DNA from: Psilocybe cubensis
Taxonomy: Eukaryota
Assembly (NCBI GenBank): GCA_017499595.2
Contig: CM038998.1
Span: 930,001-994,000 of the forward strand
Length of the DNA: 64,000 nt
Reading direction: 5' to 3'
Under the pieces are notes generated by a model that made no database searches, was not told the DNA's origin, and saw only the letters and a list, made by a program, of their open reading frames with translations. The first letter of the stretch is position 1. Each line of letters starts with the position of its first letter. Shown in pieces: positions 4,895 through 36,809 of the stretch. The position numbers were made by a program, and so were the translations under genes.

Positions 4895-6994
4895 TGAGCA
4901 GAATATCACAATAGTGAGCGCAACAGAGTAGAAGTAGAGTAGGAATGCTCTATGAACCTGTAAAGCAGGCCTTTGTGTAGAGAGAAATAAAAACTCGACT
5001 ACCTTTTTATACGAATTTCAGAAAAAGAGAAGCCATACTGAGCTGCTGCATGTTTGTGAGCTGTAGATGAAAAGCAAGATAGACTGGATTCCGCTCAAAC
5101 AATGAGAAAGTGAAGGGCTGCTGGAGCTCCTTGCACATTTGAGAGAGAATATCTCATCCCGTCAAACATCCAGATTAACCCCATCCGTTTGTGAATTCTG
5201 TGGGCGATAAAGAGGCTTTGGGGTATATGGGGTTAGGCAAGTCATTACTACCATCAGCATTTGCTGATTGAAATGGAAGCAAAGAGGTGGAAACAGGGTG
5301 CAAAAGTAAGAAAAGTGAACGAGACGGTGAGAGGAAGACACATTTGTACTCATGCAATGCCGTAATTTTGCTTGCTTTCGAGGACTTTGGTAAACAAAGA
5401 ATGGCTGTCACACGATGTTTCCGCACTTTTTCATCATACGGCCACCATGGTCTCCTCAAAATTACTCATAGGCGCCTACTTTTTGTACCCTCAAATTATT
5501 TCGAGGCCTTATTAATGATCCGTGTCTTTTGGAATGACTGTCGAATGCTGTCTCTCTGTGTACGTGGCCGCTTTATCTACGGATAAAGACCAGGTATCAA
5601 TACTGCAATCGTATGGAGGTTTCGCCTCTCTGCTCTACATCTCGCGACATCGTCGTCTCAACCCTTTACCCGTCGCTCCCTGGTGCCTGACCATGCTCGG
5701 GAACCTTCTTCGCACCCCAAAACTATATGACTGGCTGGTTCGGGGTTATCGTAATCCAATGTAGAGATTAAGTACGTCAATCCCGGCTCTCGAATTTCTT
5801 TGACCCACCACAGAATCCAAATATTGTTGAATCTTGTATGAATCCCAGTGTGCAACCCTTTACACCTCAATTGGCGCCCACAGGAACTATCACTTATCCT
5901 CGATCCAGAATAACGTCGTTCCGAATATCTGTTCTACTCCGTTGACATTATTAAACAGCGTTCAGGTAATAATTTCCAACGCGTCTGTATTTGTGAAGTT
6001 CGAGGTCTGCTTTTATTGAACATCACTGGCTTCGATGACAAGTACCTTTTCTAAACCTTTGGCTTTGGGTTAAATTGCCTCGAACTTTACCCAAACCGTC
6101 TCTATGCGATCTTCGACGGGATTATTAAGAAGACAGAATTTTCGGAGTCATGTCCCACTTTCTCCCTCAGAAGGCCTTTCAGTGATATCTGATCAGTTTC
6201 ATCGATTCATCGATAAGGTGTGCATTGTGTATATTAAACGACAAAGTGTTGTTCCCAGCTTTCTGTTCACCCACTTGAATTCTTGTCATGATGTCCTTGA
6301 AGTATATTCAAATAATGTCAACACCACAATCACACTCCTTCACATCCCAGTGGCCAGCTAACACAACTCATTCAACAGTTTTTCAGTTAACGGCTTACGG
6401 TCCCAAACAACCAGATTCTGCATCTCGGCCGATAGCATCTATGCGCCAATTAAAAGCTTCGTTATCTCATCTGTTTGTACCCCAACGTATCCCTCACAAG
6501 GTTTCGACAGCTGCTGGCTGATGATTACTCACCACAGTCGCTTATACGATTCCAACAATGAATTCGTTATCCATATCGGTTAATTTTCCCCGCATCTCAG
6601 GTAACGCATGTCTATGGTTGATCCCAGGAATACGCGGTGAGGGTTCATTTATCCCACCTAAACATTTAATAAGGAGGTCCAGTACAAGGTCAGGTTTGTG
6701 CTCAATCCACTACTGGAGAAGTATCTTATCCTATTTGATGACAGAATTCATGAAGCAAATACAGTACGTATTTGGCTAATACCCTTCTTAGCCTCATATA
6801 TGCCCTCAATTGCAACAACGCACGATTGAGAGATTGATTACGAGCCAAAACTTAAAAATCTTCGGGCACGCTACGATCCATTACGTGGAGGTATCATCAC
6901 TTCAACCCTCATGGCCCTATTGAAGACATCAAGAAGGATGAAAATAACTGAAGTCCCGACAACTAACCGGAGATAGGATTACCAGTTTTTTTAG

Positions 6995-9184
6995 TTACTG
7001 ACCAGTCAAAGAACCAACACTTTCCCAGAATCTACACCTTTCCAGCAATGCTTTGGATGATTTAATAGGCCTGACATCAGGTGCACCCGCCTCTGTTTGG
7101 TTGAAAAGCATTTCGTTTGATCCTCCCCACGGGCTCCAAGGAGGTGTGATATCGCTTTCGCGCTTCTTATTTGGATTCAAGGACGTTACGAAGTCGGGGA
7201 AGGTCTGTGTAAATGCTTTGATAAAGTCTGGGTTTGAGAAAGGGAGGTCGCCTCCTGGTGAAACAGATCCTGGGAAATAATAAATCAAATCGGTTCCATG
7301 ATTCCCTGGGGGGATGGCAAATAATCCCTGATGATCATTTATAAGATTTTTGGTGCGCCAAAAAGGTTGTGTATTACCTTGTATCCTTTCCCACCGAACG
7401 AGGTCTGGAGGTAGTATGTAGGGCACACAAATATTGCTAATGGTCGGGATTCATCAACATACTTGCGCACGATAAACATACATTTTCATTCACCTTCTCC
7501 CATAATTGAAATGACCTGGGCAAAATTTGAGCCCAACCCTGCATATTGCATTGCTGCTGCTTGTGCATTCTTCGATTCCAACGTAGGGAATAATTGAGAA
7601 ATGTACTGTGCAACCTGCACAGTATTTTCTGTAGAGGGGTCTATAAAAATCGTCCCTTCGAATGTATTCACAACGGAATAGAGTTGGTCCTTTATATGAA
7701 AACGTCATTAAATAAGTAAACATTTTCAGCGTATCCATAACTCACCCCGTTAACCTTCTTCTGCTTGAGTAGCTGCGTTGGCCTACCCTGTATAAACGTT
7801 CCATCGACGACGGGCACAAACACAAATGTCCCAAAGAAGCCGGCCGTGTTAATTGCCACGTTAGCTGCTTGCAATACATTAACATCTGCGAGACGGAGAC
7901 AGTTCAAGGTGTCGGCCGAGGAGGAACAACTAGAAAAAATATGGTCAGTTGGATTCGGTGATGATAGTTTGTCAACTCGCCCAGCCCGTGTAACGGTTTC
8001 GTTGTATATAGCCTTGCAAAAAAGCTGACGTTAGATAGAAAAGATCTTTGCCAAAAGTTAATTACCTGAGGGATACGATCGTTGTATCTGTACTGCGAAG
8101 GCAGGAACGTGGAACTTGTGATTGCACCTCGGAAGAGTGGTGGGTTCGTCCTTCCTCCGTTGGCTATTACATGTTGTAGGACAGAACCAGCACCGGCAGA
8201 CTGTCCCCATATCGTCACTTTACGAGGATCCCCACCGAATCGTTCGATCTAGAAGTGGGGTTGCAATCAATAAAGGTAGGTTAAAGAGAAAAAGGTAAGT
8301 TTGAAGAGACTAACGTAAGTCTGAACCCATTTTAATGCAAATTGCTGGTCCACTATTGGAGAAGAAGAGGCTTAAAATTTTCTTGGATTGCGATAGGATG
8401 TTACTTACAGAGACCGGCATTCAGAGCTCCCCCCTCTTTAACCTTTTGGCCTGCTAAGAATCCGAATAAACCCAGCCGGTATTGTATTGAGACGAGAATG
8501 ACTGAATCTTGAGATTGGCGCAGTATCGAATCTCCATCGTATTCGCCTCCATATCCCGTTTCTGATATGCTCCCCAGAACATACCCTCCTCTTGAAATGA
8601 AATAGTTTAGGACAAATCACACGGACGAGACACTGAGCTATTTACCCGTGAATCCAAACTACCACTGGAAGTTTTGAGGACTTTTTCACGTTTCCTGGGA
8701 TGTAAACGCTATATCAAATCAATGGTTGTGCATCATTGACGATAGTAGGTCTCTCTCACTTGAGGAAAAGGCAGTCCTCAGATGATGTTGATTCATCTCT
8801 TTTATGAACGTCTTGGGACTTGTCAACACGATAGGGATTGGTTGGGGCAGAGCCATAGGGGGACTGGAGACACATGGGTGGTTGGGCATTGGCTTGTTGG
8901 ATGCCTGGAACCGTTGAGGGCAAGCTAGGCGCATTAAACCGTGCTAGTCCTGCAAGACGATAAGTCGTTGGTATAAGATATATGGCAGGATGTATACCAG
9001 TGGGAGGCGCAGCAAAGCGAATTCCTAAGAAATGAGTTCGAGTCGCATTCGAAACGGCGTCCTCGACGACTAATCCTTGATATTTTGCATATCCGAGGTC
9101 CACTACGGGTCCTGCAGTTCGACCCAGAATTGCTGCTGCTGCGTATTGAAGAAGGGAAAGACATACAATCCCTGATATAACCAT
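6995..9184 (-). CDS. Secreted type-B carboxylesterase/lipase (alpha/beta hydrolase), copy 1
   Basis: Signal-peptide-like start, [28 protein letters not shown], nucleophile elbow WGQSAGAGS, ends [11 protein letters not shown]. Confidence 0.9.
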
Positions 9185-21102: not shown

Positions 21103-24100
21103 CTACAAAGCCCTCGCCTTCTCCAGCAGCCCCTGCACCCGTCGACTTAGCCGCTCGCCCTGCAGCCTCCGCTCCAGCACCTGCTGTCCAGGCATCTGTT
21201 TCCGCGGCAGCCACACCTTGCCCCCCTTTGCCTCTGCCCGCTTCGCATTCAACACAGACAGGTCCACCACCCGCGGCGCAGACGAGTACTCCATCACCTC
21301 GCGGTACAGCCGCTTCGTCTCCGTCGACAGCGAGAGCACCGTCGGCGCAGGTGGGGGATCCTCTGCGTCCGAATCCTCTGTGTCCGAGTTCCCTGATACG
21401 ACCAGCGGCGGCGTGGGCGTGCGTGCGACGGGCCGGGGAAGCGGCGGAAGAGTCTCGATTTCGCGGAGGAGGTCGTGTCCTTTGAGATACGAGTTTTCAG
21501 TTCGGAGGAACCGCACCGTCCCACGCAATGCCTCGATCTATGCGCATATATCAGCTCTGCAATCCCAACACAGACAAGAATACTTACCTGTTCAAGGAGA
21601 TGCGACGTCTCCAAACTACCTTCAACAGGCACATTCTCCGTCTCCACCTGCATCGGCCCAACAGCTAAAATCCCTTATCAATAAAAAAACGCGCATACAA
21701 TCCATTCCAAACACTCACATTGCCTCTCCTGTCCAGCCGTCATCGTCTTCAACTTGGCATTATCCTGCTCCAGCGTGTCCAAGTCCGCCTGCAACTGCTC
21801 CATCGCCTCCTCATACGCCCGCTCCTGCTTCCTCGCCTTCGCAAGCTCATTCTCCAGCTCAACAATCGTGTCCGCCTGCTTCTTCACCGCCTCCAGCCGC
21901 CGCTCCATCAGCTCAATCTTCACCGTCGACTCCTGGATCGTCTGGTCTTTCGTGCGTAGTGTCCGCGCGAGACCTTGTATCTCGTCGTTCAGCGACGACA
22001 CTTTGCGTTCAGCTTCGACATTAACAGCCAGCGCCGCTTTGATCTCCGCCACTCTCGCGACCCACGGTGCAATACCAGTAACTGCGCAATAAATATACCG
22101 TCAACACACATTCATCTGTACAAGGAACACTCGAGACTTACTCTTCAGTACATTCTCAGGCTCAGATACAGGCTGAACGAGCTTGGTGCTCTCCTCAATC
22201 AACAAGCTGATAAAGTCCCCAACCGCCTCCCACGCCGAAGCACCAGGCTTCATCTCCGGCGCAACAGTCGACGTCGCCGACTGCTTGACCACAGCCAAAA
22301 TGGACGTCAACTGGAACGGACACTTGAGCGCGCGGACGTCCTTCAAATGCGGCAGAATTTGTTGGGCAAGCTAACAAATGCCAAGCAGAGTGAGTGAGTG
22401 AGTGAGTGAGTGAGTTGTTCTGAGAATGAAATGAATGAATGTCCATGGGGGGAAAACGCACCGAAATGCCAAAGTTGACCATCTCAGCAACATAATTGCT
22501 CAAAGCCTTCATCTGAGGAATAATATGCGGTTTCACAGCAGCCGAATCCTGCGCCAGATCTTCCAGCCTCTTGATCAACTTCCTATAACACACAAATCAA
22601 AATCGCATATCAGCAAAACCATCTTCGCTTAGATCACATTAACGGCATGGGTTAGTAAACCGTTAATACGTACTTGGACAAAGTCTTTGCACTCTTGCAT
22701 CGGTTGATGAGGACAAGTAGCGGCTCGAACAACTCTTGGTCAATATCGTAACCGCCCATTTCCAGTGTGATATCTGCCACAAAAAAAATAAATTCCAGGT
22801 AAGCTTGACGGTTACAATACATTGCAGCGGAAGAGGAACGCACCGTCTTCTTTGATGACGCTAGCGACAGATGTCCTGGTCAACCCGATCGAAGCAGCGA
22901 ACATATCCAAATCGTGGTCAAACGCCGTAACATATCCCAACTCGCGCTCTGCAAGGTCAGTGTCGAATCCATCAAAGTACGTCTCTGCGAGGTGATCAAA
23001 TTGCGCTTGTATCCTAAATAAACAAATAGAAATGGAATGATCAGCAATGAGGTTCTTATGATGATACCATTTTTTTTTACAAAACAGAAAAGAAACGTAC
23101 TTGACAATATCATTAACACACTCCATATCCCTAAACTCATCGCGCCTCAACAAATCAATATGCATATCGATGCGTTTTTCCAAGGGCGCGATTTCAGGGT
23201 ACAATCTCCCGATATTCAAAAACGTCTCGACGTCGCATCTGCGAAGCACCGCGGCGAAGCGCTTGCATAGCGTCGAAAGTCCTGATATCCTGCCTCTCAT
23301 CTATCATTGAAAGAAAATAAAGAAAAAAGAAAATGCGAATTAAAAAAAAACACGTCGAACGTCAAAGGAGAGGATAAGACCCAAACGCACCTCGCATACT
23401 CCAACGATGGTATCTGTGACATCCCCGTTGAGCGCTTCGGGGAGGTTGTGGATGTGCGCTACGACGTTGTTGATCAGATCGGCTTTGTACCCCATACGGC
23501 GGAAGAACAGGTAGCAGCTCGTAGCGTCGCTGTCGGATTCGACGTATAGTTGCGGTAGGTAGGGCTAGATATAGATAACACATAGACACGGGGGTTTAGC
23601 TTAGCTCAAAAAAACAAAAGAAATAAAAAAGGAGAGAGAGATGGAGAGGGAGAAGGAGAAGGAGAAGGAGGAGAAGACGCACCTGGACGATATTCAACAG
23701 CTCTCTGCACTCCTTGGCCTCTATACTCTTCACCTCGAGATCAATCGTCCGCGCCTGGTTCTTCTGCGCAGACGATTGGAGTTTCAAGTTGAGCGACATG
23801 ATATTAGCCGCCTGCGATGCTGCCGACGCTGACTCTGACTGTGCCGTCTGTGTCTGCGTGCGTAGTTGGTCTAGGTCGCTGTATAATTGAAATAGTATCA
23901 GATATATGTCAATAGTCAATGTGAATTCGGAGGAGAGAAGGGAGGGAGGAGGAGAAGAACGTACGTCTGGAGTTGCATGACGAGATCGCGGAATTGTTGG
24001 ATAGTGCCTTCATAGTCCTGGCAAGTCTCTTCCAAACTATCGATCTTCCGCTGCAGCTCTCGTATCTGAGACTCCTTCGCCTCTAAAATAATAATAATAA

Positions 24101-26097
24101 AACACGATTTGATCAGCAACGCAATTCGCTCTTCTTTTTTTTAGAAAAGTTGTAATTGAACGCGGGACAAACCTAGATCTTCATGCAGCTGTTTCTCAGT
24201 CTCGGTATGGTTCTCTTCAAGCTCATCAGAAAGCTCTTTGAGCGCCTCGAGATCTTCAATGGTAATCCGCATCTCCTCGATTTTCTGCAAAAAAAGTTAT
24301 TATTTAATAACGTAGAACGTGAGTGCGATGTGGATAGAAAGCAAGAATTTACCTCCCCTAGAACAAGATTGCGTTCGGTCAATCTGACGAGCATGTCTTC
24401 GGCGGTGAGCGCGTCGTCCAGTTGGAGTTTGAGATCTTCGATCTGGGTTTCGGCGTTCGCGAGCTTGATCATCGCTTCGTCGTAGGACGCTTCAAGAGGA
24501 ATGGGTGGGTTATTGAAAATGATTTGCCAGAAATAATGTAAACGTACCTTGAAGGTTTTCAGCGTCTGACACGTCTTTCTCCATTTCAGATATCCGGCGT
24601 CGCTGCTCTTGTTCGGATTCTTGGGTCATGTCTCGTAGTCTATCATCATTGATTATGAGTATAAAAGTAAATAAAATATAAATGTGACTAACTTTATAAG
24701 AGCCTCTTTTAGCCGTTCATTCTGCTTCTCAAGCTGAATGTAAGCCATCGAATCTTTCGCAGGCGTATCCCCCGTTTCCGCGCCCTCTGAAAAGTATCCC
24801 TTGAGCATCAACTCAAATTTAAAAAAAGTCCAACACGCATACCTTCTTTCAGCACATCAACCTCAACCTCCAAAATGGCCAGCTTCTCCTTAACATCCTC
24901 CAACTCCGCCTCCGCCAGCTCCGCCCTCTCCTCCGCGACCTCCTTATCCAACATAACCATCTCCAGCTGCTCCTGCGCATCAATCACCCTGCTCTCCGCG
25001 AGCTGCGAGAGCTGCTGGGCGTCAGCGAGCTCGCGCCGCGTGGCGATGAGCTCGCTTTGCAGGGACGTCAGTTTGGCTTGGAGCTTGGGCCGCGCGGCGA
25101 CGAAGGCTTCGGTGTCGGCGAGACGCGTCTCGAGCTCGCGGATGTGCCGGGATTCGTCGGTGCGCTTTGCCTCGAGCACGCGGATTTTGGCGCGTAGTTC
25201 TTGGAGCTCGGTGTCATCGTGAGGTGGGGGCGGCTGTGGGGGAGGGGGAGCCTGAAAATGTGGTTGGGATGTGTGGATAGAATCGGGTAGAGGGAGGGAT
25301 ACTTACGGGTTCGGTTGGGGGTGGTGATGGGGGTGGAGAAGAAGCGAGACGGGAAGGTGGTCTTTGTGCTTGGGATATTGTTTGGAGGGGTGGTTGACTT
25401 AGGGGAGAAGATGTCCGTTTGACGGAGTATGGCTGGGAAGATGCGGAGGGTTTGACTGGTGATGTGGATCCATTGCGCGAGGCAGGGTTGGGAGAAGAAG
25501 GTGGGATGTCCTGCGATGGTGAGTGTCGGGTTATTAGTGACTTGCGGTGCTGAAGAGGCGACGTTAGCGACGAAGTGGATACGGGTGGTGGTCTCGCTGT
25601 AGAGCGAGACAGCGAGGGGGGCACGGCTAATGAGGTTGAAGGCTTTGCTGGACTGGCTGACCGGGTGGAGGCATTGGATGATGGCTGACTTTTGATGTTG
25701 ACAGAGTTGCGACGGAGGAGACTGCTGCTGCTTGGAGTGCGTTGATGGCCCAACCCAGCTGGACGCGCAGTCGACGGGAGTCTCTAGAAACAGGCAAAAT
25801 TCGTATGGTCTCTCTACAAAGTTTGAGATTACGCACTGGAGAGGGCAGGTTGTCGAGCTCTGAGCCGTGTATGCTTCGGATCTGACTTGGTCTCACAAAA
25901 ACACCGTACCCCATTTCGCACTTGAAGTACGCGATTCCCTCCACAGATCCGTCGTTCTTTCCGTTCTTCTCATACAGCTCAATTCCAACCCATTTCCCAG
26001 AGGTCATGAACGACGTTGGTCCTTTGAAACGGACCACACCGCGGCCCTGCGGCACAGTGACGATTGAGCCTATCGGGGGATCCATGACGCCAGACAT
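21103..26097 (-). CDS. DCTN1: Dynactin subunit 1 (p150Glued)
   Basis: N-terminal CAP-Gly domain (GKWVGIELYEKNGKNDGSV...YGVFVRPSQI), S/P-rich linker, coiled coil with LEMVMLDKEVAEERAELAE, and dynactin domain over many exons. Confidence 0.95.
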
Positions 26098-26517
26098 TGT
26101 GGGATTAGGTCGTCCAATCTATCAGGTATTTCGATTCTAGACTTTACAGTCTTGGGTATCTGAAGAAAATTATAGAGAAATGAAAGCCATAGATTATTAA
26201 AAAAACGTTTAGAAAGAGTTGGTTTAAGAGCAAAGTGTGAGGCGTCGCGTCACGCAAACAAACAGCTGATCCACATTCGGCCCTGTCTTCCATAATCGAC
26301 CTTCGATATTTCCTGTCACTGTCCTCTTCGGACTGACTTGAAGTCTTCCTCTATTCCCTCATTCTTCGTCGTTTTATCGGCAGGTTAGTTCGCTCAGTAA
26401 ATCTAGTCATAAAAATAACACTGATATCTGGGTTTTCGACAGTATCACAGCCAATTACGCCCTGTGGCTGGTTGCGAAGATCGAGTTGGATTCGAGGACC
26501 GAGTGCTATCTGGAAAG

Positions 26518-29500
26518 ATGAGTACAAGTCAACAACAACTCCCTCCTCGGAACAATGGGCCCAAGTTCACGACAGGTATGTTCGCGCGAAGCACGTTACA
26601 TTGCATATTTGACCATTGCCGCCCAGGCACCACACGTTGGCCTCGCGTGAATGGCAGCAGCGAGCGAACAGGGAGCTCCGATTCCGACACTGAACGAGAC
26701 TTTCGCTCCGCTTCTCGCTCGGACCCCTCTTCGAGATCGCGCACCCATCATTCGCGAGGTCCGCACGGCCGTCGCAGTCCTGACCATCGAGCACCTGCCT
26801 CTATTGAAACGGCCCCCGACGCCCCAGCTGTCCCATACTGGTCCGGAAAACGTCACCTTACATGTGGAAACCCAACGCCGGGCCCTCCATGGTCGGCCAA
26901 AAATACTCCATGGCGCGGTTCGGCGCCTGGAAAACTGAAAACATCGAACGCGGTGCTAATCATATGTTTGAACATCGGTGTTGACCCGCCTGATATCGTC
27001 AAGACCGACCCATGCGCCATGCTCGAATGCTGGGTCGATCCACACTCAATGCCGGCGAAGAAGGCTCTAGAGGCAATTGGCACCAATTTGCAGCACCAAT
27101 TCGAAGGGCTCAGCACCAAGATTTCGTATAAACCAATACTAGACCCTGAAATCGAAGAGCTCCGAAGATTCTGTATTGCACTGCGAAAGCAGTCGAAAGA
27201 GGATGCCGTTGTATTCTACTATAATGGGCATGGTGTGCCTAAACCAACTTCAAGTGGTGAATTATGGTGCTTCAACAAGGACTATACACAATACATCCCT
27301 ATATCCATTCAGGAAGTACAGAGCTGGATCGGATCTCCAGGCGTGTACATTTGGGATTGTTCAGCTGCTGGGAATCTTTTACACAACTTTAACGTTTTCG
27401 CTGAAAAACGAGACAATGAAATCATCAGTACACATGGCGGCTTCCCGGAAGGTGCTCAACCGATGATGAATTCGTTGCAGCTAGCTGCGTGTGGCGCCAA
27501 CGAGACTCTTCCAACTTGTCCAGAACTCCCAGCCGACGTTTTCACATCCTGTTTAACATCGCCAATCGACATTGCTCTGCGATATTTTATTATGAACCAT
27601 CAACTACCTAACAACATCACTCAAGATATGGTAACCCAACTTCCCGGAGACCTCAAAGACCGACGTACCCCACTCGGGGAATTGAACTGGATTTTCACTG
27701 CAATCACTGATACTATTGCCTGGACAACGTTCTCTCGAGAAACGTTTACAAGACTCTACCGGTGTGATTTGCTCATTGCCTCCATTTTCCGCAACTTTCT
27801 GCTTGCCGAACGTATCATGAAAGACTACCATTGCACACCCCACACATACCCCCCACTTCCAGCCACCAATACCCACCCTTTGTGGGCAACCTGGGATCTT
27901 GCAGTAGACGCTTGCCTGCGGCAGTTACCAGATCTTCTGACAAAACCGGGTATCAGTGCTCTTGCAAGCACTGGTACCGTTCCAGGGCGAATTGGGAAAA
28001 CTTCACGAGACGATCCAGCAGGTACCGTCAAGACGCCCGAAAAGCCATACGTGTATGTGCCCAGTCGTTTCTTCGCCGACCAGTTGACTGCGTTTGAAGT
28101 CTGGATATCCCGGGGAGGGTCCGCTTTGACAAGGCGAGGGCCGTTATCTCTTCCGCAGCTTCCTAGCGACAATCCCAACACACAGAATCAACCAGTTGAT
28201 CATGATCCTATTGCAGACCGGAACCTCGTCCCACGAAAACCTCCCGACCAATTGCCCATCGTATTACAGGTCCTGCTTTCCCAACCACATCGACTACGCG
28301 CACTCATTCTCCTATCACAATTCGTCGATTTGGGTCCATGGGCTGTCCACCTAGTGCTTACAATCGGTATCTTCCCATACATCTCGAAGCTGTTACAAGC
28401 AGCAGGCCAAGACCTCCGGCCCGTCCTCATATTCATATGGGCACGAATCATCGCAGTCGACTCGTCCGTCCAAACAGACCTGTACAACACCCAAGGCTTC
28501 CGCTACTTCTCCAACATCCTAAGCATCCGAAACGAGGACAACCTCCCGAACAGCTCCGAGCACAAGGCGATGTGCTCGTTCATCCTCGCGTCCATCGCTC
28601 GGGACTTCCCACAGGGCCAGATAGCGTGTTTGAACGAGAGGGTGTTTGATAACTGCTACGAGCTGATGGAGGAAAATGATTTTTTGCTGCGTCAGTGGAC
28701 GACGCTGTGTATTGCGCAGTTGTGGGATGGTAATGATGAGATCAAGGTGTGGGGTGTTGATAGGGGCACGCAGGATAAGCTGATCGGATGCCTTTCTGAT
28801 GTCTCGGCGGAGGTCCGCTCAGCTGTGCTCTATGCACTCGGTACATTCCTGGGTGCCAGTGGCTCTGCGGATCCCAACAGGCGGGGCGGCGGGGGCTCGG
28901 GCCCAATGAGCCATCTCGAGGAGTTCGTGCACTTCAAGATGGAAGTGGCCATCGTCACGGGTGCTACGCTCGCCATCAAGGACGATGCGAGCCCCATGTG
29001 CAGGAAAGAGCTGCTTGTGCTGATCAGCTGTTTGGTGAAAGAGTGGAGAGGGTATTTCGTGATTTGCGCGTGGTTGTATTGGGAGGAGGATAGGAAATGG
29101 CGGTTAAATGCCTCGGGCCATCATTCGTTCTTCAATGATGAAGATATCACTAATCAGGCTGTTGCGGATTGGTTGGAAGGATTTGGTGACGATCATAGAG
29201 CCAGAGAAGAGAATCGTGTGGTGTTGTCTTCATTTTTCACTGTTTTCGTGTCACTTCTGGATCTTTCTGTCGATCCGTATGAGGAGGTTGCGACCAATGC
29301 TCAAACGCTTGTCGATTATATCATGGCTTTGCTTCTGGAATCGCCTTTCAGCCGTATGGAGTCTTCGTCACTGAACAGTGCGCCAATGGCAGACTACGAT
29401 AAGCGAGGGTCGCCCAAACCGCACAACCCCCGGACACGGGTATCCTCTCTGCAATCGTCGCCCAATCCTGGTTATCAAGTACCGCCATCTCCTGGCGGCT

Positions 29501-31712
29501 TCGACCGCCCAGGCTTGAACCGTAATGACAGCGTGACGACGACCCTCGTCGGCGGCGTCGCTTCGACCATCAAGCGCACCTCTTCGTTCGCCAATGCCTT
29601 GAAACAATTCGCCGGAGGCATTGCCTTCCCTCATTCAGAAGACGGCCGCTCGTCACCCAGCATCTCGGGCACCCTGCACCACCACCACCACGAAGCCGTC
29701 GACATCTCCCGCCCACCTTCGCCGAACATGAACCTCGCCAAATATACCTCTCCCTATTCACGCCCTCCGTCTTTCAGACAGAGTGCGTCGGACTATGACG
29801 GCTCGCCGACGCGGTCTGCGGAAGAACAGGTGCAGCCTCCTGCGGAATTCCTCGCGTGTGATGTTATGGAGGCACTTATGGAGGAGGATCTTGAGCGCCT
29901 GAGGGCGCGCAGGAGAAGTGCCTATCAAAGAGGGCACGGACGCGGGTCGATACCCAGTCCTAGCAATAGTACATTCTCCATGGATTCGACCAACAGCAGT
30001 GTCATTTTGGGTATTGGCACTGGTGCTGGAATTCACGATTGTCTGCCTTTGAAGAGCACCTTTTTCGATTGGTGTGCGGAATACTTCAAGGAACCGCAAA
30101 TGAGGGTTGGTGTTTTTCCATAGGCTTTTCTATCCTTTTTTCGTTCGTGGCTGATTTGTCATAAATAGCAAACTGAAGCGGATGAACCTGGTAGTACACA
30201 GTATAACTACCAAGTCTGGAGACAGCAGCGCAATGACCAAGTTATCAAGGAAACAGATTCGCAAGCTTCAATGGCCGGTAGGTGTAATCATCCTATTTTT
30301 TTTTCAATTATGTAAATTGATTTTGAATGCGATCAGAGCACCATCGATGGGATCGTTCTGTGGCTTCGATAAACATTTCTGGCCATCCGATGACAATGGC
30401 CTTCCATTCATATGACAAACACCTTGTCATTGCAAACGAACATGACATGATCAGGTAACTCGTATATTTTTTTGCGGTTCAAGAATGTTTTGTGCTTATG
30501 TGATTACAGTGTTTGGGACTGGCACACTCGAAGACGACTTAATTACTTCTGCAACGGCAATCCTCGAGGAACAAGTATTACCGGGCTCCACATCATCAAC
30601 CAAGAGATCGGTGGTATCATTGTAACAGGCTCAGGTACGTGGTAATCGATGTAGTTGACGCTGTCAGCTCAATCTCTCTTTTGTTTTGTAGCGGACGGAA
30701 TTGTTCGTCTGTACCGCAACTATGATCCTACACTGGACCAAGGGCCCCTCCAGATGGTCAGCGCCTTCAGAGGCCTGAATGAGATGATTCAATCGCGACA
30801 AGGAAGTGGGCTTGTCATGGACTGGAAGCAGTCGGGTGGTTTATTGTTGGTTGGAGGCGATTCGAGAGTGATCAAAGTATGGGATGCTTCGACGGAGCAA
30901 CAAGGATTGGTATGTATCTTTTTTTTGTGGATTCTCTAAAGCCTGATCAATATTTCGTCAGGATCTGGACACCAACTCTGAGAGCCCTGTCACATCTATC
31001 GCCCATGATATTGGATCGTCGAAAATGTTTGTGGCAGGCTTCGCCGATGGTGTTGTTAAAGTCTTTGATGGTCGTCTTGAGGAGGAAGATGCTATCGTGC
31101 GCACTTATTCTGACCACACATCCTGGGTCCAGAATGTGCGATGGCATCCCACTCTGAATGGACAGATTCTGTCGGCAGGGTATGCGCATTGCACGTTATT
31201 TATTGTTTGGTGCTGACATGCAATGATCAGGATTGATGGCGAAGTGAAGCTGTTCGATTTGCGTAGTCATGATTATGCGCTCAGAACATGGAATCTCCAT
31301 CCAAATGGTCTTTCTGCTTTCGATGTCCATCCTACTTGTAATGTGTTTGCTGCGTACGTTGTCGTCTACTTTTTGAGTCGTAGCCATTGAACCGAAGAAA
31401 CTGCTTTTACAGGAACTCTACTATTACTCCTGTCCATTGGAAATCGCAGCGCATAGTCGTACAATCAATAAATAAAACATCGCCTCTCTGTACTCTCAAC
31501 GTCGGAACTGGCCTAACAACTCCTCCTGTTCGAGGCCTTCCTTCACCATTCTTCCCGAGAGCCAGTTCTCTTGTATTCCACCCCACGGAAATGTTGTATG
31601 CTACTGGTGGCCCGGATGGTTGTGGTAAGCTTCTACTTATTAATGTCCGGATATTCAGAAACCTCCTCACACGCCTTTTTCAGTGAGAATCCTGGGCTGC
31701 CACTTCGCATAA
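26518..31712 (+). CDS. KOG1: TORC1 subunit Raptor
   Basis: LIICLNIGVDPPDIVK, FYYNGHGVPKPT, LPADVFTSCLTSPI, PPDQLPIVLQVLLSQPHRLRAL, HEAT region, and C-terminal WD40 exons. Ends VRILGCHFA* at 31710-31712. Confidence 0.97.
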
Positions 31713-32491
31713 TCACCAGCAAGTCTCTTGGTGTCTTTTGTCACTTTGACCTTTATATCGTTTGTTGTCTTGTTTCCGAATGCATTCCAGCCTTTCTATA
31801 CAGTTTTGTAATTCTATTCAGCTATCTCGATATCTTGTAATACTTCTTTTTTTTTCCTTTCCTATTCATACATGCGCGGCGTCTCTTTTTCTTTCACTGG
31901 CTTTCTGTATATAGAGAGTTCATTCTTGCACAAGTTGGATACTATACTCCCATAATATGCTATGCTCTTTCTGTTCATCCAATCACTGAACATAATACCA
32001 TTATGTCGCTTTTGTTTTTTTTTCTCTTAAGGGAGATCAAGTCTAGTCAGGACTCAGAATGGTTGGTGGAGGTTCTAGGGATTATGCAACACTCCGACTG
32101 CGTTTGATGATCCTCTCCATCTGAGGATAATCTAGCCCTCCTTCCAATTTTCAGGGGTTTTGGAGGGTTAGGGGATGAGAATGACGAACGCGATGCTGCA
32201 GACGACGACCAGAGCTCGAAGGTGAGATGAAGTTGGTATAGTCAGCCGGCGCGTGCGGCGTCCTAGCCTCTTGCTTGTTTTTATATCATTACTCATCATG
32301 TTGCACACTTTTTTTTTTTTTTTTTTTTTTTTTAATTCCTAGTTTACCAAACACGATATATATATTTGGCACAATAGATACCGGCGAATAACTTCTTGCC
32401 ATAAAAGGGTTTCAGTTTTCCTTTTTTGGTTGAAAAAAAATGTATTGTGTGGAGCAAACAACCGTTATTGGCTGCACCAGTTTATATAAAT

Positions 32492-35119
32492 CTACTCTAC
32501 CCCAGTTTGATCCAACCGCAACCCGTTCACCCGAACGCCTCCTCTAGTCCAGTGCTCGTTCCCTGAAATGAAATCACTCCGTACGACCTTGCCACGTAGT
32601 TTCACACATTTGTTGACCTCGAGCTTCACATAGACACCTTCTACCCTTCCGTCATAAAACATGGACGGCTGCTGAACCATCCGTAAAAGTTGAGACTCGG
32701 TAGGCATTGTCCCTTCGTGTACTATGGGTGCGGTTGCAATGGAGGTCTCTCCTAAAAGGTGTCGTAAAGTGGCAGTATCTGCCCAGGTCTTAGTGCTCCG
32801 GTCAAACAGATCATACGCGATGAAATAGTCTGGGAGAGAGGTGTATGGAATGGAGTGCGTCGCATATACCCACTCTCCGTAGAGAATGTATCGCTCAGGG
32901 AAATAGGGATCGCGGTCCAGGACCCGTCGCAACTCTTGGTCATGCCTCTCCACCCAGAGACCAAGTTTGCGGAACTGTTCATGTGTAGAGGAGTTGACGT
33001 AGTGAGAACGGTTCTGTACGATTATTCGCGATCTATCTGAGGACAGAGAGAAACCCATGTTGGCGCCGTCAATTTTCTCAGTGATGACTGTATGGCCCGC
33101 TGCAGTATTAGTAAAGACAGCGAGGTCGGTATGTACGTCATCTGCGCTTGCTGCTCCTGTGTTGATAAGATGTGGCGTCCGAGGGAACTTGAGGATGGAA
33201 ACCGGGGAGGAAAACCTAAGCACAGCCTCTTCTGCGGCAGCAAACGAGCGAACGGTGATGACAGCCTTGAACCCTTCTTTCAAAGTCGGTTTCATGAATA
33301 TCTTCTGCATCTGGTCCACCGCATTGCGCACACGGCTTCCTGGAGGAAGGGTAGGATGGCCAGCACGCATCTGCGCCCGAGAAGTACACAATTCCTGACT
33401 GTAGTCGAATAAAATACAGACGGGCGACACACACCAATTGGACGCTAGGTCAAGCCATATTTTCCGATCTGCCGCCGAGGTATTGCAACGGTCCAATAGG
33501 ACATGCTTTCCCTTTGGTGACCTCCCTATCTCTGTCTCGCATGCTTCTTTGCTTCTTGAGTCGTCTTGAGATATATGTGTCCATTTCGAAGGGTCTCTTG
33601 AAATCAACGATTTGGAGAACCACGATTTCCCAGAACCAGGAAGCCCAACCAATACGAAAAGGTCATTATCGGCACTCAGCTTTCCTTCAACCTCCATCGG
33701 CGAGGGAGAAGGTTCCGAAGGGATGTCGGGGTACACAGATTGCCGCTTCCATATGGTGCTGCACCACCTTGATACAAATTCCTCTTGCCGCGACGTTTCC
33801 AGACTTCCAGGGCGCAAAGCACGCAGAGAAGATATCGCCTCCGTTGCTGCAAGCTCAGGATGATCTTGATCGTGCCTAGGTTTGTTGAAACCAAATGCTG
33901 CCAGATAGCATGCCGCCACTGTTCCAGCGCGCCCTTTCCCACCGCCACAGTGTACTAGCAAAGGAAGCTTGTCCTGATCATCAAACAGCCGCATAACAAG
34001 ATCCATTTGTTCTATGGAAGGCGGATAATAGTTTGGCACGGGTAAAAACGTGTTGGATATGGATTTGCCTTGGAACCATGCAGGTCTCAATGGCTCTTCT
34101 TCTGTCAGAGTTAAAACGTGCCGGATGCCCAATGGTGCGGAAGCAAGAGCGGTTATATCATCTTCGTTTTTGGGCGTCGACATGATGGCCAAATGATAAG
34201 GAATGAGCCACCGGAAGAATCGAGGCAATCTGTAGAAATGTAGTTTAGCACCCATGTTCTTTGTTGAGGGGATATATAGGGGTTGTCGGGGCTCCAGGAG
34301 GAGTGAAGGGGTATTGCCTTGATCACTGAGTCTTTCCTGCAGGTCCTGTGACCATGGCTTCAACAAGAGGGATGAAATCTCCGAAAGGTTTTCGATCTGC
34401 TCTTTTTCGTGTTCTTGGAAAACAAGACCCCATTCAGTTTCTTTGGAACATTCAGTCAACTTCTTCATGCAATAAGATTGCACCTTTTGGTCTCCGGACC
34501 GTTGATACGCGCATGCATACGAAAGCATAGCAATTTTATGTGATCCGTTCGCAAAGCACGCATCTCCCATTCGAAGGAACCCTTTGTGACTGTTTGGGTC
34601 GGTAAGAATAAGTCTGGAGGAATATTCTGTAGCCTCGTTGTACTGTGCGAACTGTTGTAAGGTGAATATCGTATGGTCCAATGCTTCAACTCCAGAAACT
34701 TCAGGAAGGTCGCGAGATATAAGAGAATTGATGCCTTTATCAACATCATGGATGTCATTCGAGGATAGTGTGATGTGGAAGTGTTTTGGGGGCAGCCCAG
34801 CTTGCTTTCGTAGTTTCTGGCCGGCTGCCCATATTATGACGACCCAATAAATGCCTGCTTGTTCTTTCCCCCCGATGCCCAACGAAAATAACGACTTTGG
34901 GTCCACCTCGGTGGAGGTGATCTTTTGGATTTGTTCTGAGCTGATCATGCGGAGTTCATCCTTCGTGATAACTGTAATGTGGTACAGTTTTTGTGAAGGT
35001 TTTAATGCACCGGAACGAATGAGGTTTGCGAACGATGGGTCGGTATTGACAAAGTTGTCAACTGCTTGTCCTGCAAGAGCTAAGCAACCTCGAAAATTTT
35101 CTAGCTTGATAGTCGCCAT
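32492..35119 (-). CDS. Multi-domain RNA end-healing and sealing enzyme: 2H phosphoesterase + TPR + CX5R phosphatase + P-loop polynucleotide kinase + ATP-dependent RNA ligase
   Basis: Intronless 875 aa. HITV (34970-34981) and HITL (34766-34777); HCGGGKGR (33929-33952); GLPGSGKS (33623-33646) plus LLDRCN; KFPRTPHL, TEKIDGAN, YGEW, FIAYDL, EGVYVK and RGKVVR ligase motifs. Confidence 0.88.
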   Translation of the reverse strand: MATIKLENFRGCLALAGQAVDNFVNTDPSFANLIRSGALKPSQKLYHITVITKDELRMISSEQIQKITSTEVDPKSLFSLGIGGKEQAGIYWVVIIWAAGQKLRKQAGLPPKHFHITLSSNDIHDVDKGINSLISRDLPEVSGVEALDHTIFTLQQFAQYNEATEYSSRLILTDPNSHKGFLRMGDACFANGSHKIAMLSYACAYQRSGDQKVQSYCMKKLTECSKETEWGLVFQEHEKEQIENLSEISSLLLKPWSQDLQERLSDQGNTPSLLLEPRQPLYIPSTKNMGAKLHFYRLPRFFRWLIPYHLAIMSTPKNEDDITALASAPLGIRHVLTLTEEEPLRPAWFQGKSISNTFLPVPNYYPPSIEQMDLVMRLFDDQDKLPLLVHCGGGKGRAGTVAACYLAAFGFNKPRHDQDHPELAATEAISSLRALRPGSLETSRQEEFVSRWCSTIWKRQSVYPDIPSEPSPSPMEVEGKLSADNDLFVLVGLPGSGKSWFSKSLISRDPSKWTHISQDDSRSKEACETEIGRSPKGKHVLLDRCNTSAADRKIWLDLASNWCVSPVCILFDYSQELCTSRAQMRAGHPTLPPGSRVRNAVDQMQKIFMKPTLKEGFKAVITVRSFAAAEEAVLRFSSPVSILKFPRTPHLINTGAASADDVHTDLAVFTNTAAGHTVITEKIDGANMGFSLSSDRSRIIVQNRSHYVNSSTHEQFRKLGLWVERHDQELRRVLDRDPYFPERYILYGEWVYATHSIPYTSLPDYFIAYDLFDRSTKTWADTATLRHLLGETSIATAPIVHEGTMPTESQLLRMVQQPSMFYDGRVEGVYVKLEVNKCVKLRGKVVRSDFISGNEHWTRGGVRVNGLRLDQTGVE

Positions 35120-35540
35120 AAGCTTTATAGATACAGATGATGAGGGAGAAAAGTGTGGGTTATACCTTAATCTCTTTCATTATCTCGCCTTTTATGCCCA
35201 AAGGCTCAGCGCTGACATTACTTCCGAGTTACGCTTCACCGCCTCGGTGAGAACGAGTCATTTCGACTTCTTCAGTGAGTGATAGTAACCTTGACACGTC
35301 CTGGCGTCCAGTATTCAAGAGTTTTGATGCATGATCTTTGATCAAGAAGGTGCTTTGTATAAGTGCACACAATTTCAGACATGGAAGAATAAAAGGCGAA
35401 AAATACCTGGTTACCTGATCATCACTGAGCTTTACGTTCTTGACACTGCCACCTCCCATCTCCGGGCCGCCAACAAACGGCGATGCTGGTGACTTGGACT
35501 CCACGTTGACTCGTTCCTCCTCACCCTCCCCGTCCCGCAC

Positions 35541-36809
35541 ATGGCTCCCATCCCAAAATTCCCAGAAGAAGTTGAATCTCTCATATCCGCTATCGAGAGA
35601 AGATACAAGCACATCGTAGATGTAGAGGTTCCCAACCTGCGACAATGTGTAGGACCTGCATCCGTGCAACAGTCCCTAGCAGAAGACGTGCGAGAGGATA
35701 CCGTGGCATTAACGCGACAGATTGAGGTACGTAGCTCTGTTAAAGTCTCCTGCATATCTCCTTAATCAATGCGCAAGTCTGCAACAGTCGCTTGCACTCA
35801 TGGTTGATGATCAGAAGGGAGCAAAGACGCGGAAAGAGCTAAAGGAAATCGCGGATGATTTTCAAAAGAAACTCGAGAGGTGTGTAACAGCCTGCCTGGT
35901 ATATTTGGTGCTATACCTTATATACATCGTCTACAGTTTACGCAGTGAAAGTCGCGCGGCCCTTCTTGCGTCAAAGAAAGCCATGGACCAGCGTTCGAAA
36001 TCGAATCGAGAAGAATTATTGTCGTTCTCGTCGGCAATGACAGAGAAACAAAATTCGAGCGAGAAGACAACGTAAGGAGGCCTGTCTATTTCTATCAATG
36101 CCAGATTTAATCGCATAAATTCAGCGAGGACGCGCTCATGAAAGCCAACTCTGACGTGACCGATGCACTTCGTCGTACCATCGCCCTCATGCAAACCGAA
36201 CTCGAGCGCTCAGTGCTAACCACTCAAATGCTCGATGAATCTACCCGTACCCTCAACTCAACTTCAACGCAGCACGATACTCTCAATAATCTTATGTACA
36301 CATCTCGCCAACTGGTCACAGCGCTCGAAAAATCCGACTGGCTCGACCGTATCCTCATCCTATCTGGACTCGCATTCTTTGTCCTGGTCGTCCTGTTCAT
36401 CTTGAAACAAAGAATCGTGGATCGTGGAATCAGAATCGCGTTCTGGTGGACAAGATTTATCCCCAGTTTTGGAGACGATGCAGAGCTCCTTCGTGCCGCA
36501 GAAAAAGGCGCTGCGAGCGTGGTGGTAGAGGCGTCATCAAGCATTTCCAGTGTTGCAGCCTCTCTGGCGTCATCAGTGATTCCTGTAGCAAGTTCGATAT
36601 TGGCATCTATGCCCAGTGTCGTCCCGGTGTCACCTGTTCTTTCTGAATCATCGAGTTCCTCGGTCTCCTTGATTTCTCAGGCAGAGCCTACACCTGCAGA
36701 GACACCTGTGGTGGATGAGGCTGAAGTGCCCACGATCGATGTGGAGGCTACTGTCCCGAGTCCTGAGCCAGAAGCGGTACCCGATGCTGCTGTTCATATA
36801 GAACTATGA
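35541..36809 (+). CDS. SEC20: ER SNARE Sec20/BNIP1
   Basis: Spliced coiled-coil N-terminus, SNARE-like DVTDALRRTIALMQTELERS...LDEST, LEKSDWLDRILIL followed by a TM helix, and the HDEL-like C-terminus HIEL*. Confidence 0.9.

Follow-up and report, generated by a model that had tools for sequence, protein, structure and literature searches.

An intron-free open reading frame of Psilocybe cubensis that probably encodes a five-module RNA-repair protein of the Swiss Army Knife family

Can a single uninterrupted open reading frame (ORF) of a fungus encode every activity needed to mend a broken RNA and, if so, is such an arrangement new and how was the gene acquired? In this study, we address these questions for a locus of Psilocybe cubensis, lying in a window of 64 kb (the whole stretch of DNA analysed; contig CM038998.1 of assembly GCA_017499595.2, positions 930,001 to 994,000 of the forward strand), to which all coordinates below refer. 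An earlier reading of this locus, made from the sequence alone, had proposed a self-contained RNA-repair enzyme of five modules. Our analysis indicates that the ORF probably encodes an Agaricomycete representative of the Swiss Army Knife (SAK) family of RNA-repair proteins, which has been defined computationally; the protein is built of five modules, was probably inherited vertically and is predicted to act by a heal-and-seal mechanism.

The single intronless ORF named by the sequence-only reading was recovered at exactly its coordinates, 32492..35119, the end including the stop codon. From stop to stop the frame spans 32492..35176 (894 codons), and it ranks second in length among the 15 open frames of at least 200 aa in the window. 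It is free of introns and colinear with full-length homologues, at a query cover of 99–100%. The check by hidden Markov models, domain by domain, that the same reading had suggested gave four Pfam families, 2H-SAK, PTP-SAK, AAA_33 and RNA_ligase, each above its cut-off (27 bits for each) and in SAK order along the ORF, a result far beyond chance. All the motifs cited earlier could be placed by script, namely HITV at residues 47–50, HITL at 115–118, HCGGGKGR at 390–397 and GLPGSGKS at 492–499, together with the ligase motifs KIDGAN (682–687), GEW (748–750) and EGVYVK (827–832). The five modules are thus present in the order, and with the catalytic motifs, that had been described:

32492..35119, minus strand: the whole ORF, SAK-family protein (875 codons plus stop, ATG start; stop codon 32492–32494)
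34730..35119, minus strand: 2H-SAK phosphoesterase module, residues 1–130 (Pfam PF22547)
34310..34702, minus strand: TPR module, residues ~140–270 (about three TPR repeats plus capping helices)
33773..34225, minus strand: PTP-SAK cysteine phosphatase, residues 299–449 (Pfam PF22784)
33200..33673, minus strand: P-loop polynucleotide 5'-OH kinase, residues 483–640 (PDB, NCBIfam and Pfam matches)
32495..33199, minus strand: ATP-dependent RNA-ligase nucleotidyltransferase, residues 641–875 (PF09414)

Judged from sequence, neither the architecture nor the locus is new. As Pfam holds dedicated families described as 'Swiss Army Knife protein, DSP-PTPase phosphatase domain' (PF22784) and 'Swiss Army Knife, 2H phosphoesterase domain' (PF22547), the five-module arrangement has been curated already, and the locus is an ordinary, catalogued SAK orthologue. 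SAK proteins were reportedly introduced by Burroughs and Aravind in Nucleic Acids Res in 2016. The window protein carries a 2H-SAK domain with two HxT motifs, a PTP-SAK cysteine phosphatase with an HCX5R signature and a kinase followed by a C-terminal PF09414 ligase, in the order 2H-(TPR)-PTP-KIN-LIG (KIN, kinase; LIG, ligase) on one polypeptide. The earlier statement that such proteins had been predicted only computationally fits what we found: the family is named in Pfam, and no biochemical study of the SAK architecture was found in a full-text library that lacks most subscription journals, nor in the same library any paper citing PF22547, PF22784, 'PTP-SAK' or '2H-SAK'. What the present analysis adds is a set of small new points: the phosphatase carries an asparagine at the acid position, the kinase is akin to the splicing kinases of Mucorales, the core of the ligase is of the Rnl2/Rnl5 type, giant viruses have both whole and split versions, and the rotifer copies nest within the fungal part of the family.

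The family is large. A word-seeded search gave 580 relatives, the closest from Psilocybe cyanescens (identity 79%, query cover 100%), and the named matches of this first search were Agaricomycetes; an orthologue of Coprinopsis cinerea (P0046) is also among the relatives. Among the 120 relatives listed, PF22784, PF09414 and PF13671 occurred in 120/120, as did PF22547 save in P0097, P0098 and P0120. A HMMER search, run exhaustively over 1.84 billion cluster representatives, returned 4714 proteins at E ≤ 0.001, 530 of them at E ≤ 1e-30. When the query's own five segments were used as probes on 269 collected proteins, all five modules were found in SAK order in 136, 2H-PTP-KIN-LIG in 42, the poorly conserved TPR module going undetected there, and PTP-KIN-LIG in 21; the remainder were fragments or rearrangements, a few with the ligase before PTP-KIN. 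A second homologue search, seeded with a member of 33% identity (P0216), extended the named relatives to chytrids (Globomyces, Terramyces, Gaertneriomyces, Polychytrium and Powellomyces), the ascomycete Aureobasidium, one Cryptococcus species, bdelloid rotifers (Rotaria), one fern record and the giant virus Terrestrivirus. Homologues bear database names such as 'ATP dependent DNA ligase', 'dna ligase iii' and 'tyrosine specific protein phosphatase', which are automatic labels.

Conservation was assessed in an alignment of 145 full-length family members (A1). Invariant throughout (145/145) are C391, G396, R397, Q445, G497, H588, T648, H650, D660 and D661, and likewise E681, K682, D684, G685, N703, R704, Q715, S819, E827 and G828. 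The catalytic set H47/T49/H115/T117/C391/R397/K498/D519/K682 is intact in 125 of the 145 aligned relatives.

The modules and their predicted chemistry

At the N-terminus, PF22547 was matched over residues 12–124 (E 1.5e-21, 77.3 bits). The HxT motifs lie at 34970–34981 (HITV) and 34766–34777 (HITL), and D122, H124 and K128 are also conserved. Across A1, H47 is kept in 134, T49 in 135, H115 in 142 and T117 in 135 sequences, while a profile made of the fungal domain and 10 giant-virus loci (A4) shows H47, T49, G81, H115, I116, T117, D122, H124 and K128 invariant in 11/11. A structural model of residues 1–295 (predicted local distance difference test, pLDDT, 93.4; predicted template-modelling score, pTM, 0.90) places H47 and H115 in strands 47–51 and 114–117, and in this model the 2H part and the helical part appear to form one rigid body. 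Over residues ~140–270 the fold matches were to TPR proteins (Tah1, Sti1, Sgt2 and designed TPRs), which argues for about three TPR repeats. Of the TPR-like helix pair that had been noticed from the sequence, the TPR nature therefore stands, and the single pair gives way to about three repeats.

Proteins consisting of the 2H-SAK domain by itself also came to light. In the protein Atlas, free-standing 2H-SAK clusters of 164–247 aa were seen, their few classified members mostly viral (Uroviricota); in a further cluster like these, the cyclic phosphodiesterase family of Trl1 (tRNA_lig_CPD) was present in 10% of the members, which is a lead only. Through a separate, word-limited search we retrieved 20 short proteins with 2H-SAK, including one of a Halobeggiatoa bacterium. 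The tRNA-splicing cyclic phosphodiesterase of Mucorales is still unidentified according to the relevant report (PMC11571804); the idea that it might be a free 2H-SAK protein found no support, as 0/20 of the short proteins from that word-limited search were named as Mucorales.

The phosphatase matched PF22784 over profile positions 1–153 of 153 (E 1.3e-58, 197.8 bits). Its P-loop, HCGGGKGR, lies at 33929–33952, and both C391 and R397 are present in 145/145. In profile matches to the PDB, the best solved relatives were 25xa (E 9.7e-18) and human DUSP23 (2img, E 4.6e-17). The 'P-N-Y' of the window phosphatase aligns with the 'P-D-F' of DUSP23, 25xa and ShufPTP, in which we take the aspartate to be the general acid. 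The corresponding residue here is Asn363 (34031–34033). Within the family this position holds Asn in 111/145 and Asp in 34/145, with no other residue, and the Asp is found mainly in a divergent branch that includes the giant-virus copy.

The kinase matched AAA_33 in Pfam (E 7.6e-12, 46 bits), with its P-loop GLPGSGKS at 33623–33646, D519, and R581 and R585 in the lid. Its best solved relatives were RazKIN of Rhizopus (9D8A, E 6e-22) and LcoKIN of Lichtheimia (9DRZ, E 1.6e-19), with ~125–140 residues aligned. Mammalian PNKP (~1e-7) and Clostridium Pnkp (3.5e-7) were weaker PDB matches, and no Trl1 kinase chain stood among the 11 PDB sequences that matched the kinase at E ≤ 0.001. NCBIfam gave domain-level matches to PNK-3'Pase (TIGR01663, E 6.7e-15) and bacterial Pnkp (TIGR04075, E 4.7e-10). 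In RazKIN, Arg99 stacks on the guanine, Arg103 binds the phosphates and Ser146 of the G-loop reads the base (PMC11571804). Arg99 and Arg103 align with R581 and R585, conserved in 141/145 and 144/145 members, and Ser625 (Ser in 116/145), a few residues beyond the last aligned strand, is a candidate G-loop serine. The Mucorales kinases phosphorylate 5'-OH ends of RNA and DNA, prefer GTP and can substitute for the Trl1 kinase in yeast (PMC11571804); by analogy with these relatives, the SAK kinase may possibly prefer GTP as well.

For the ligase, the match to PF09414 (RNA_ligase) covers residues 677–844 (E 4.5e-32, 112 bits), with motif I, KIDGAN, including K682, at 33059–33076 and R842-x-K844 near the C-terminus. 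The domain was modelled with a pLDDT of 93.9. Structural comparison of the modelled core scored NgrRnl first (16.6, over 191–193 residues with a root-mean-square deviation of about 3.2), followed by T4 Rnl2 (16.4), REL1 (15.2), Rnl3 (14.6), T4 Rnl1 (14.1), the DNA ligase of African swine fever virus (ASFV; 13.2), the Trl1 ligase (12.0) and human DNA ligase 1 (11.4). Since NgrRnl and T4 Rnl2 head this comparison, the core is, on the evidence of the model, of the Rnl2/Rnl5 nick-sealing kind, at ~16% identity. It falls outside Rnl2 proper, scoring 12.9 bits with TIGR02307 against a cut-off of 197 and having no C-terminal domain after the nucleotidyltransferase. To NgrRnl it aligns over residues 139–339 only, and in SAK it is the kinase that lies upstream. 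The DNA-ligase arrangement of an adenylation domain plus an OB domain was not found in the protein.

Two further observations concern the ligase module. Just upstream of motif I lies a nearly invariant K-F-P-R-T-x-H-L element (KFPRTPHL, residues 644–651; 33137–33190 of the window when D660-D661 are included), and bacterial ligase matches start near residue 641, so that they include it. One bacterial relative is fused to a kinase in the order ligase-kinase (L030:5497-7401), and in Dictyobacter alpinus a relative of the ligase module adjoins a protein with an HD domain and an AAA_33 kinase (L042:5959-6777 and 7276-8454).

Proposed function and its rivals

The class of fold is established for the ligase and for the TPR module and, on sequence grounds, for the phosphatase and the kinase. 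From the established chemistry of these enzyme classes, the most likely course of events is one in which RNA ends are first healed and then sealed. The 2H module would open a 2',3'-cyclic phosphate at the broken RNA 3' end, and the cysteine phosphatase, by way of Cys391 and Arg397, would clear the resulting 2'- or 3'-phosphate to give a 2'-OH,3'-OH end. The kinase would phosphorylate the 5'-OH end, possibly with GTP, after which the Rnl2/Rnl5-like ligase, adenylylated at Lys682, would seal the nick as a 3'-5' phosphodiester. The TPR module, rigid with the 2H part in the model, may serve as a scaffold or as a docking surface for partners or substrate. NgrRnl is described as sealing 3'-OH/5'-PO4 nicks that have an RNA 3'-OH strand (PMC4408790), a property that would fit a need for full 3' healing in SAK. 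Likely substrates would be structured RNAs, such as tRNA and rRNA loops, cut by transesterifying ribonucleases including toxins; a nick-sealing ligase would suit breaks in folded RNAs whose ends stay held. That such repair of ribotoxin-cut tRNA or rRNA might form a second pathway, independent of Trl1, was a conjecture of the sequence-only reading.

Several points weigh against this reading. For the 1–295 model, fold searches (Foldseek and a wider structure search) gave TPR matches only and no 2H match, and comparison of the 2H profile A4 with the PDB gave no solved relative at E ≤ 10; the putative 2H assignment is drawn solely from the match to the Pfam profile and from the two HxT motifs being conserved. 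In the phosphatase, Asn363 complicates the phosphomonoesterase reading, and a plain 2'/3'-phosphomonoesterase role would not be assured, because asparagine cannot protonate the ribose-oxygen leaving group. The accessory domains of NgrRnl (N-terminal) and T4 Rnl2 (C-terminal), both of which are needed for nick sealing, are absent from the SAK ligase. Word depth in X1 and X2, two runs of uncertain type consisting of contigs, is ~0–17 over the ORF against ~12–100 in the neighbouring genes, these being contig depths and a poor measure of expression. Finally, no measured activity for any SAK protein was found in the literature searched, and the enzymatic roles given here are predictions from sequence.

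Against what kind of damage might such an enzyme be kept? Among the products of mushroom-forming fungi are ribotoxin-like proteins, which cleave the sarcin-ricin loop and are inhibitory to other fungi (PMC10535218 and PMC10572553), and bdelloid rotifers under fungal attack strongly up-regulate horizontally acquired genes with RNA-ligase domains, including PF09414 genes (PMC11258130). These findings lend ecological plausibility to a role in biological conflict, of which they are no test. If the predicted chemistry is true, no eukaryotic enzyme known other than SAK would unite all four steps of RNA-break repair in a single polypeptide and leave a clean junction, and SAK would hold the first cysteine phosphatase used in RNA 3'-end healing. 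As a large family of fungi, giant viruses and rotifers for which no biochemistry was found in the literature searched, it makes a good target for the bench.

The asparagine, which stands in for the general-acid Asp in the majority of fungal copies, also invites a bolder version of the proposal, which we put forward as a long shot. The phosphatase would here be no routine 3'-phosphomonoesterase. Its target might be an activated phosphate (the cyclic phosphate as such, or an end with a phosphoanhydride) or else a 2'-phosphate, terminal or at the junction, making SAK a complete, Tpt1-independent repair machine in a single polypeptide. Such a machine could protect mushrooms against ribotoxin-like proteins that attack the sarcin-ricin loop, whether self-made or released by competitors, and be a cassette valuable enough for whole uptake by giant viruses and bdelloid rotifers.

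We consider it improbable that the protein serves housekeeping RNA processing, for example as a Trl1 back-up or alternative in tRNA or HAC1-type splicing, and has no part in repair after damage or conflict. In keeping with a housekeeping role, its closest characterised kinase relatives are the Mucorales tRNA-splicing kinases (PMC11571804), and the gene is conserved across Agaricomycetes and placed among housekeeping genes. However, the patchy distribution of the family (chytrids, Aureobasidium, one Cryptococcus, Agaricomycetes, rotifers, the fern record and a giant virus) points to mobility, and seven complete copies lie on giant-virus contigs. Furthermore, a Rnl2/Rnl5-like ligase working with a phosphatase would leave no 2'-phosphate, unlike Trl1 with Tpt1, and the low contig depth relative to the neighbours is a weak argument in the same direction.

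Weaker again, and in our view very improbable, is the reading as a DNA strand-break repair enzyme, that is, a PNKP-like 3'-phosphatase/5'-kinase fused to a DNA ligase. Many homologues are indeed named 'ATP dependent DNA ligase' or 'dna ligase iii', a match to mammalian PNKP, which acts in DNA repair, was obtained for the kinase (E ~1e-7), and a related Mucor kinase also phosphorylates DNA 5'-OH ends (PMC11571804). However, the 13 Pfam families listed for the ORF at E ≤ 1 include RNA_ligase and none of the DNA-ligase families, and no OB domain follows motif V, the protein stopping 31 residues past K844. In addition, a 2H cyclic phosphodiesterase would have no DNA substrate, because 2',3'-cyclic phosphates need a 2'-OH. 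RNA repair by healing and sealing remains our preferred reading.

Inheritance, spread and genomic setting

For the question of origin, we made the taxonomic and phylogenetic comparison that had been recommended: relatives occur in fungi, giant viruses and rotifers, and the window copy lies among Agaricomycetes. A maximum-likelihood tree was built from 69 hand-picked rows (31 named proteins, 8 giant-virus ORFs and 30 unnamed representatives) and 836 columns, by a quick search with only Shimodaira–Hasegawa-like approximate likelihood-ratio (SH-aLRT) support and an arbitrary midpoint root; flags were raised for two long branches and for 27 rows of unusual composition. In this tree the window protein groups with Psilocybe (99), then with Galerina (100), other Agaricales (95) and other Agaricomycetes (99). 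A Cryptococcus group lies nearby, with Aureobasidium and some chytrids farther out. The 9 viral rows, without exception, are placed across the midpoint root with 13 unnamed ones (support 91). The window gene is, from this sequence comparison, an inherited fungal gene that roughly follows species order. Two Rotaria proteins (P0330 and P0339) lie inside the 20-row Agaricomycete clade, a placement that fits transfer from a basidiomycete to a rotifer. The fern record, from Adiantum (P0147), clusters with chytrids and Aureobasidium; it may stem from contamination.

As a whole, the SAK family appears from its distribution to be mobile among eukaryotes and their giant viruses. We surveyed 23 giant-virus or other viral loci, of which seven hold the whole 2H-PTP-KIN-LIG array in one ORF (L002, L003, L004, L006, L007, L008 and L017). 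One further locus encodes PTP-KIN-LIG (L005) and one is cut by the contig end (L019). Split versions also occur: at L009, 2H-PTP and KIN-LIG are separate ORFs (909–2420 and 5971–7188) ~3.5 kb apart, and at L010 a free ligase (5929–6708, plus strand) lies beside 2H-PTP-KIN on the opposite strand (6692–8392, minus strand). The ligase stands alone at 7/23 loci.

The bacterial survey covered 80 loci of at least 577 matches, from a scan seeded with ligase motifs only. The ligase module was present in 80/80 of these, and neither 2H-SAK nor PTP-SAK in any (0/80). A kinase was nearby or fused in 9/80 by the SAK-derived profile, fused at L030 and otherwise at L031, L067, L081, L084, L087, L090, L091 and L099; this profile undercounts, given that the HD-AAA_33 protein beside the L042 ligase was found by Pfam. 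A bacterial source for the whole cassette was considered and rejected, the five-module fusion not having been seen in this limited bacterial sample.

Around the ORF the genes are ordinary, with a Raptor homologue on one side, Sec20 on the other and, farther off, an AAA ATPase and ETF-alpha. The features nearby are:

24082..25837, minus strand: gene with seven introns of 53–90 bases, CT..AC on the plus strand (runs X1 and X2); its largest open frame, 25068–25892, has no Pfam match
26425..31966, plus strand: Raptor (Kog1) homologue, with one 3.7-kb intron-free exon (Raptor_N E 2.2e-63, 26425–30123) and eight short GT..AG introns at 30104–31683 (runs X1 and X2)
32299..32343: short repeat just downstream of the SAK gene, at which contigs of X3 and X4 break
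32456..32491, minus strand: short 3' untranslated stretch; X1 and X2 contigs both end at 32456, a weak hint of the 3' end
36138..36809: Sec20

The runs X1 and X2 are taken as RNA-derived because they contain spliced joints in the neighbouring genes that are missing in X3 and X4, which are genome-like. The neighbours hold an intron per 150–250 bases, while the SAK ORF has none in 2.6 kb, and none of the 15 joints listed (of 21) falls inside it. Unspliced contigs of X1 and X2 lie on 32456–33373 and 32456–33060, with some cover at 34020–35021 and no cover by either run in the bin 33519–34019. The SAK gene is transcribed at least in part, and is read unspliced. With regard to introns in relatives, a metagenome scan gave one partial locus (L001; residues 682–874 in one frame, 63% identity), and metagenome gene calls hold full-length single-ORF proteins, for example P0017, P0019 and P0111. 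Metagenome gene-calling pipelines do not model introns; these single ORFs give a hint, at the level of sequence, of intron-free relatives and are too little for the family as a whole.

The lack of introns had led the sequence-only reading to a horizontal or retro origin, and a recent event of this kind is scarcely credible: 2.6 kb without an intron next to seven joints in 24082–25837 and eight in 30104–31683, in a family that does move between lineages (Rotaria in the Agaricomycete clade, giant-virus copies), would suit it, but the gene nests in expected species order among Agaricomycetes beside Psilocybe and Galerina, between Raptor and Sec20, with all 9 viral rows on the other side of the tree, 0/80 bacterial loci carrying a 2H or PTP module, and a 3.7-kb intron-free exon in the adjacent Raptor gene by which long intron-free stretches are not unique to SAK. 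Far earlier, when the fungal clade arose, the gene may still have been transferred or retro-copied.

Comparison with known systems

Among known enzymes, the Trl1 of fungi and plants, which acts with Tpt1, also has on one polypeptide an ATP-dependent RNA ligase, a P-loop kinase for 5'-OH ends and a cyclic phosphodiesterase of the 2H type, in the order ligase-kinase-cyclic phosphodiesterase and without a phosphatase; with these it heals and seals breaks that have 2',3'>p and 5'-OH ends (PMC11571804). Compared with it, SAK has the reversed order and adds the cysteine phosphatase and the TPR module. The contrast with fungal Trl1 drawn at the outset holds, in the order of modules and in the phosphatase that Trl1 lacks, and no Trl1 Pfam family stood among the 13 families listed for the SAK ORF, in which the Trl1 ligase, kinase and cyclic phosphodiesterase families in their LIG-KIN-CPD order (CPD, cyclic phosphodiesterase) were not found. 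The predicted SAK product would be without the 2'-phosphate that Trl1 requires and Tpt1 removes.

The systems of T4 Pnkp with Rnl1/Rnl2 and of bacterial Pnkp-Hen1 follow the same logic as SAK, in that the 3'-phosphate is removed, the 5' end is phosphorylated and ligation yields a normal phosphodiester. Their phosphatases, however, are not of the cysteine type, those of T4 Pnkp and bacterial Pnkp being a HAD acylphosphatase or a metallophosphoesterase, whereas SAK uses a cysteine phosphatase and a separate 2H module. With the RNA 5'-OH kinases of Mucorales (MciKIN, RazKIN and LcoKIN), the SAK kinase shares the P-loop, the QDD aspartate, DRCN and the lid arginines. These are free-standing proteins of 163–208 aa that are assigned to tRNA splicing and have proven RNA 5'-kinase activity (PMC11571804), whereas the SAK kinase is embedded among five modules.

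The closest comparison is with the SAK family itself. The window protein has the same modules in the same order, shows no essential difference and is a member; within the family it is marked by the Asn at the general-acid position of the phosphatase, like 111/145 relatives, and by a Lys at motif IV position 832, where Arg is slightly commoner (K 69, R 74 of 145).

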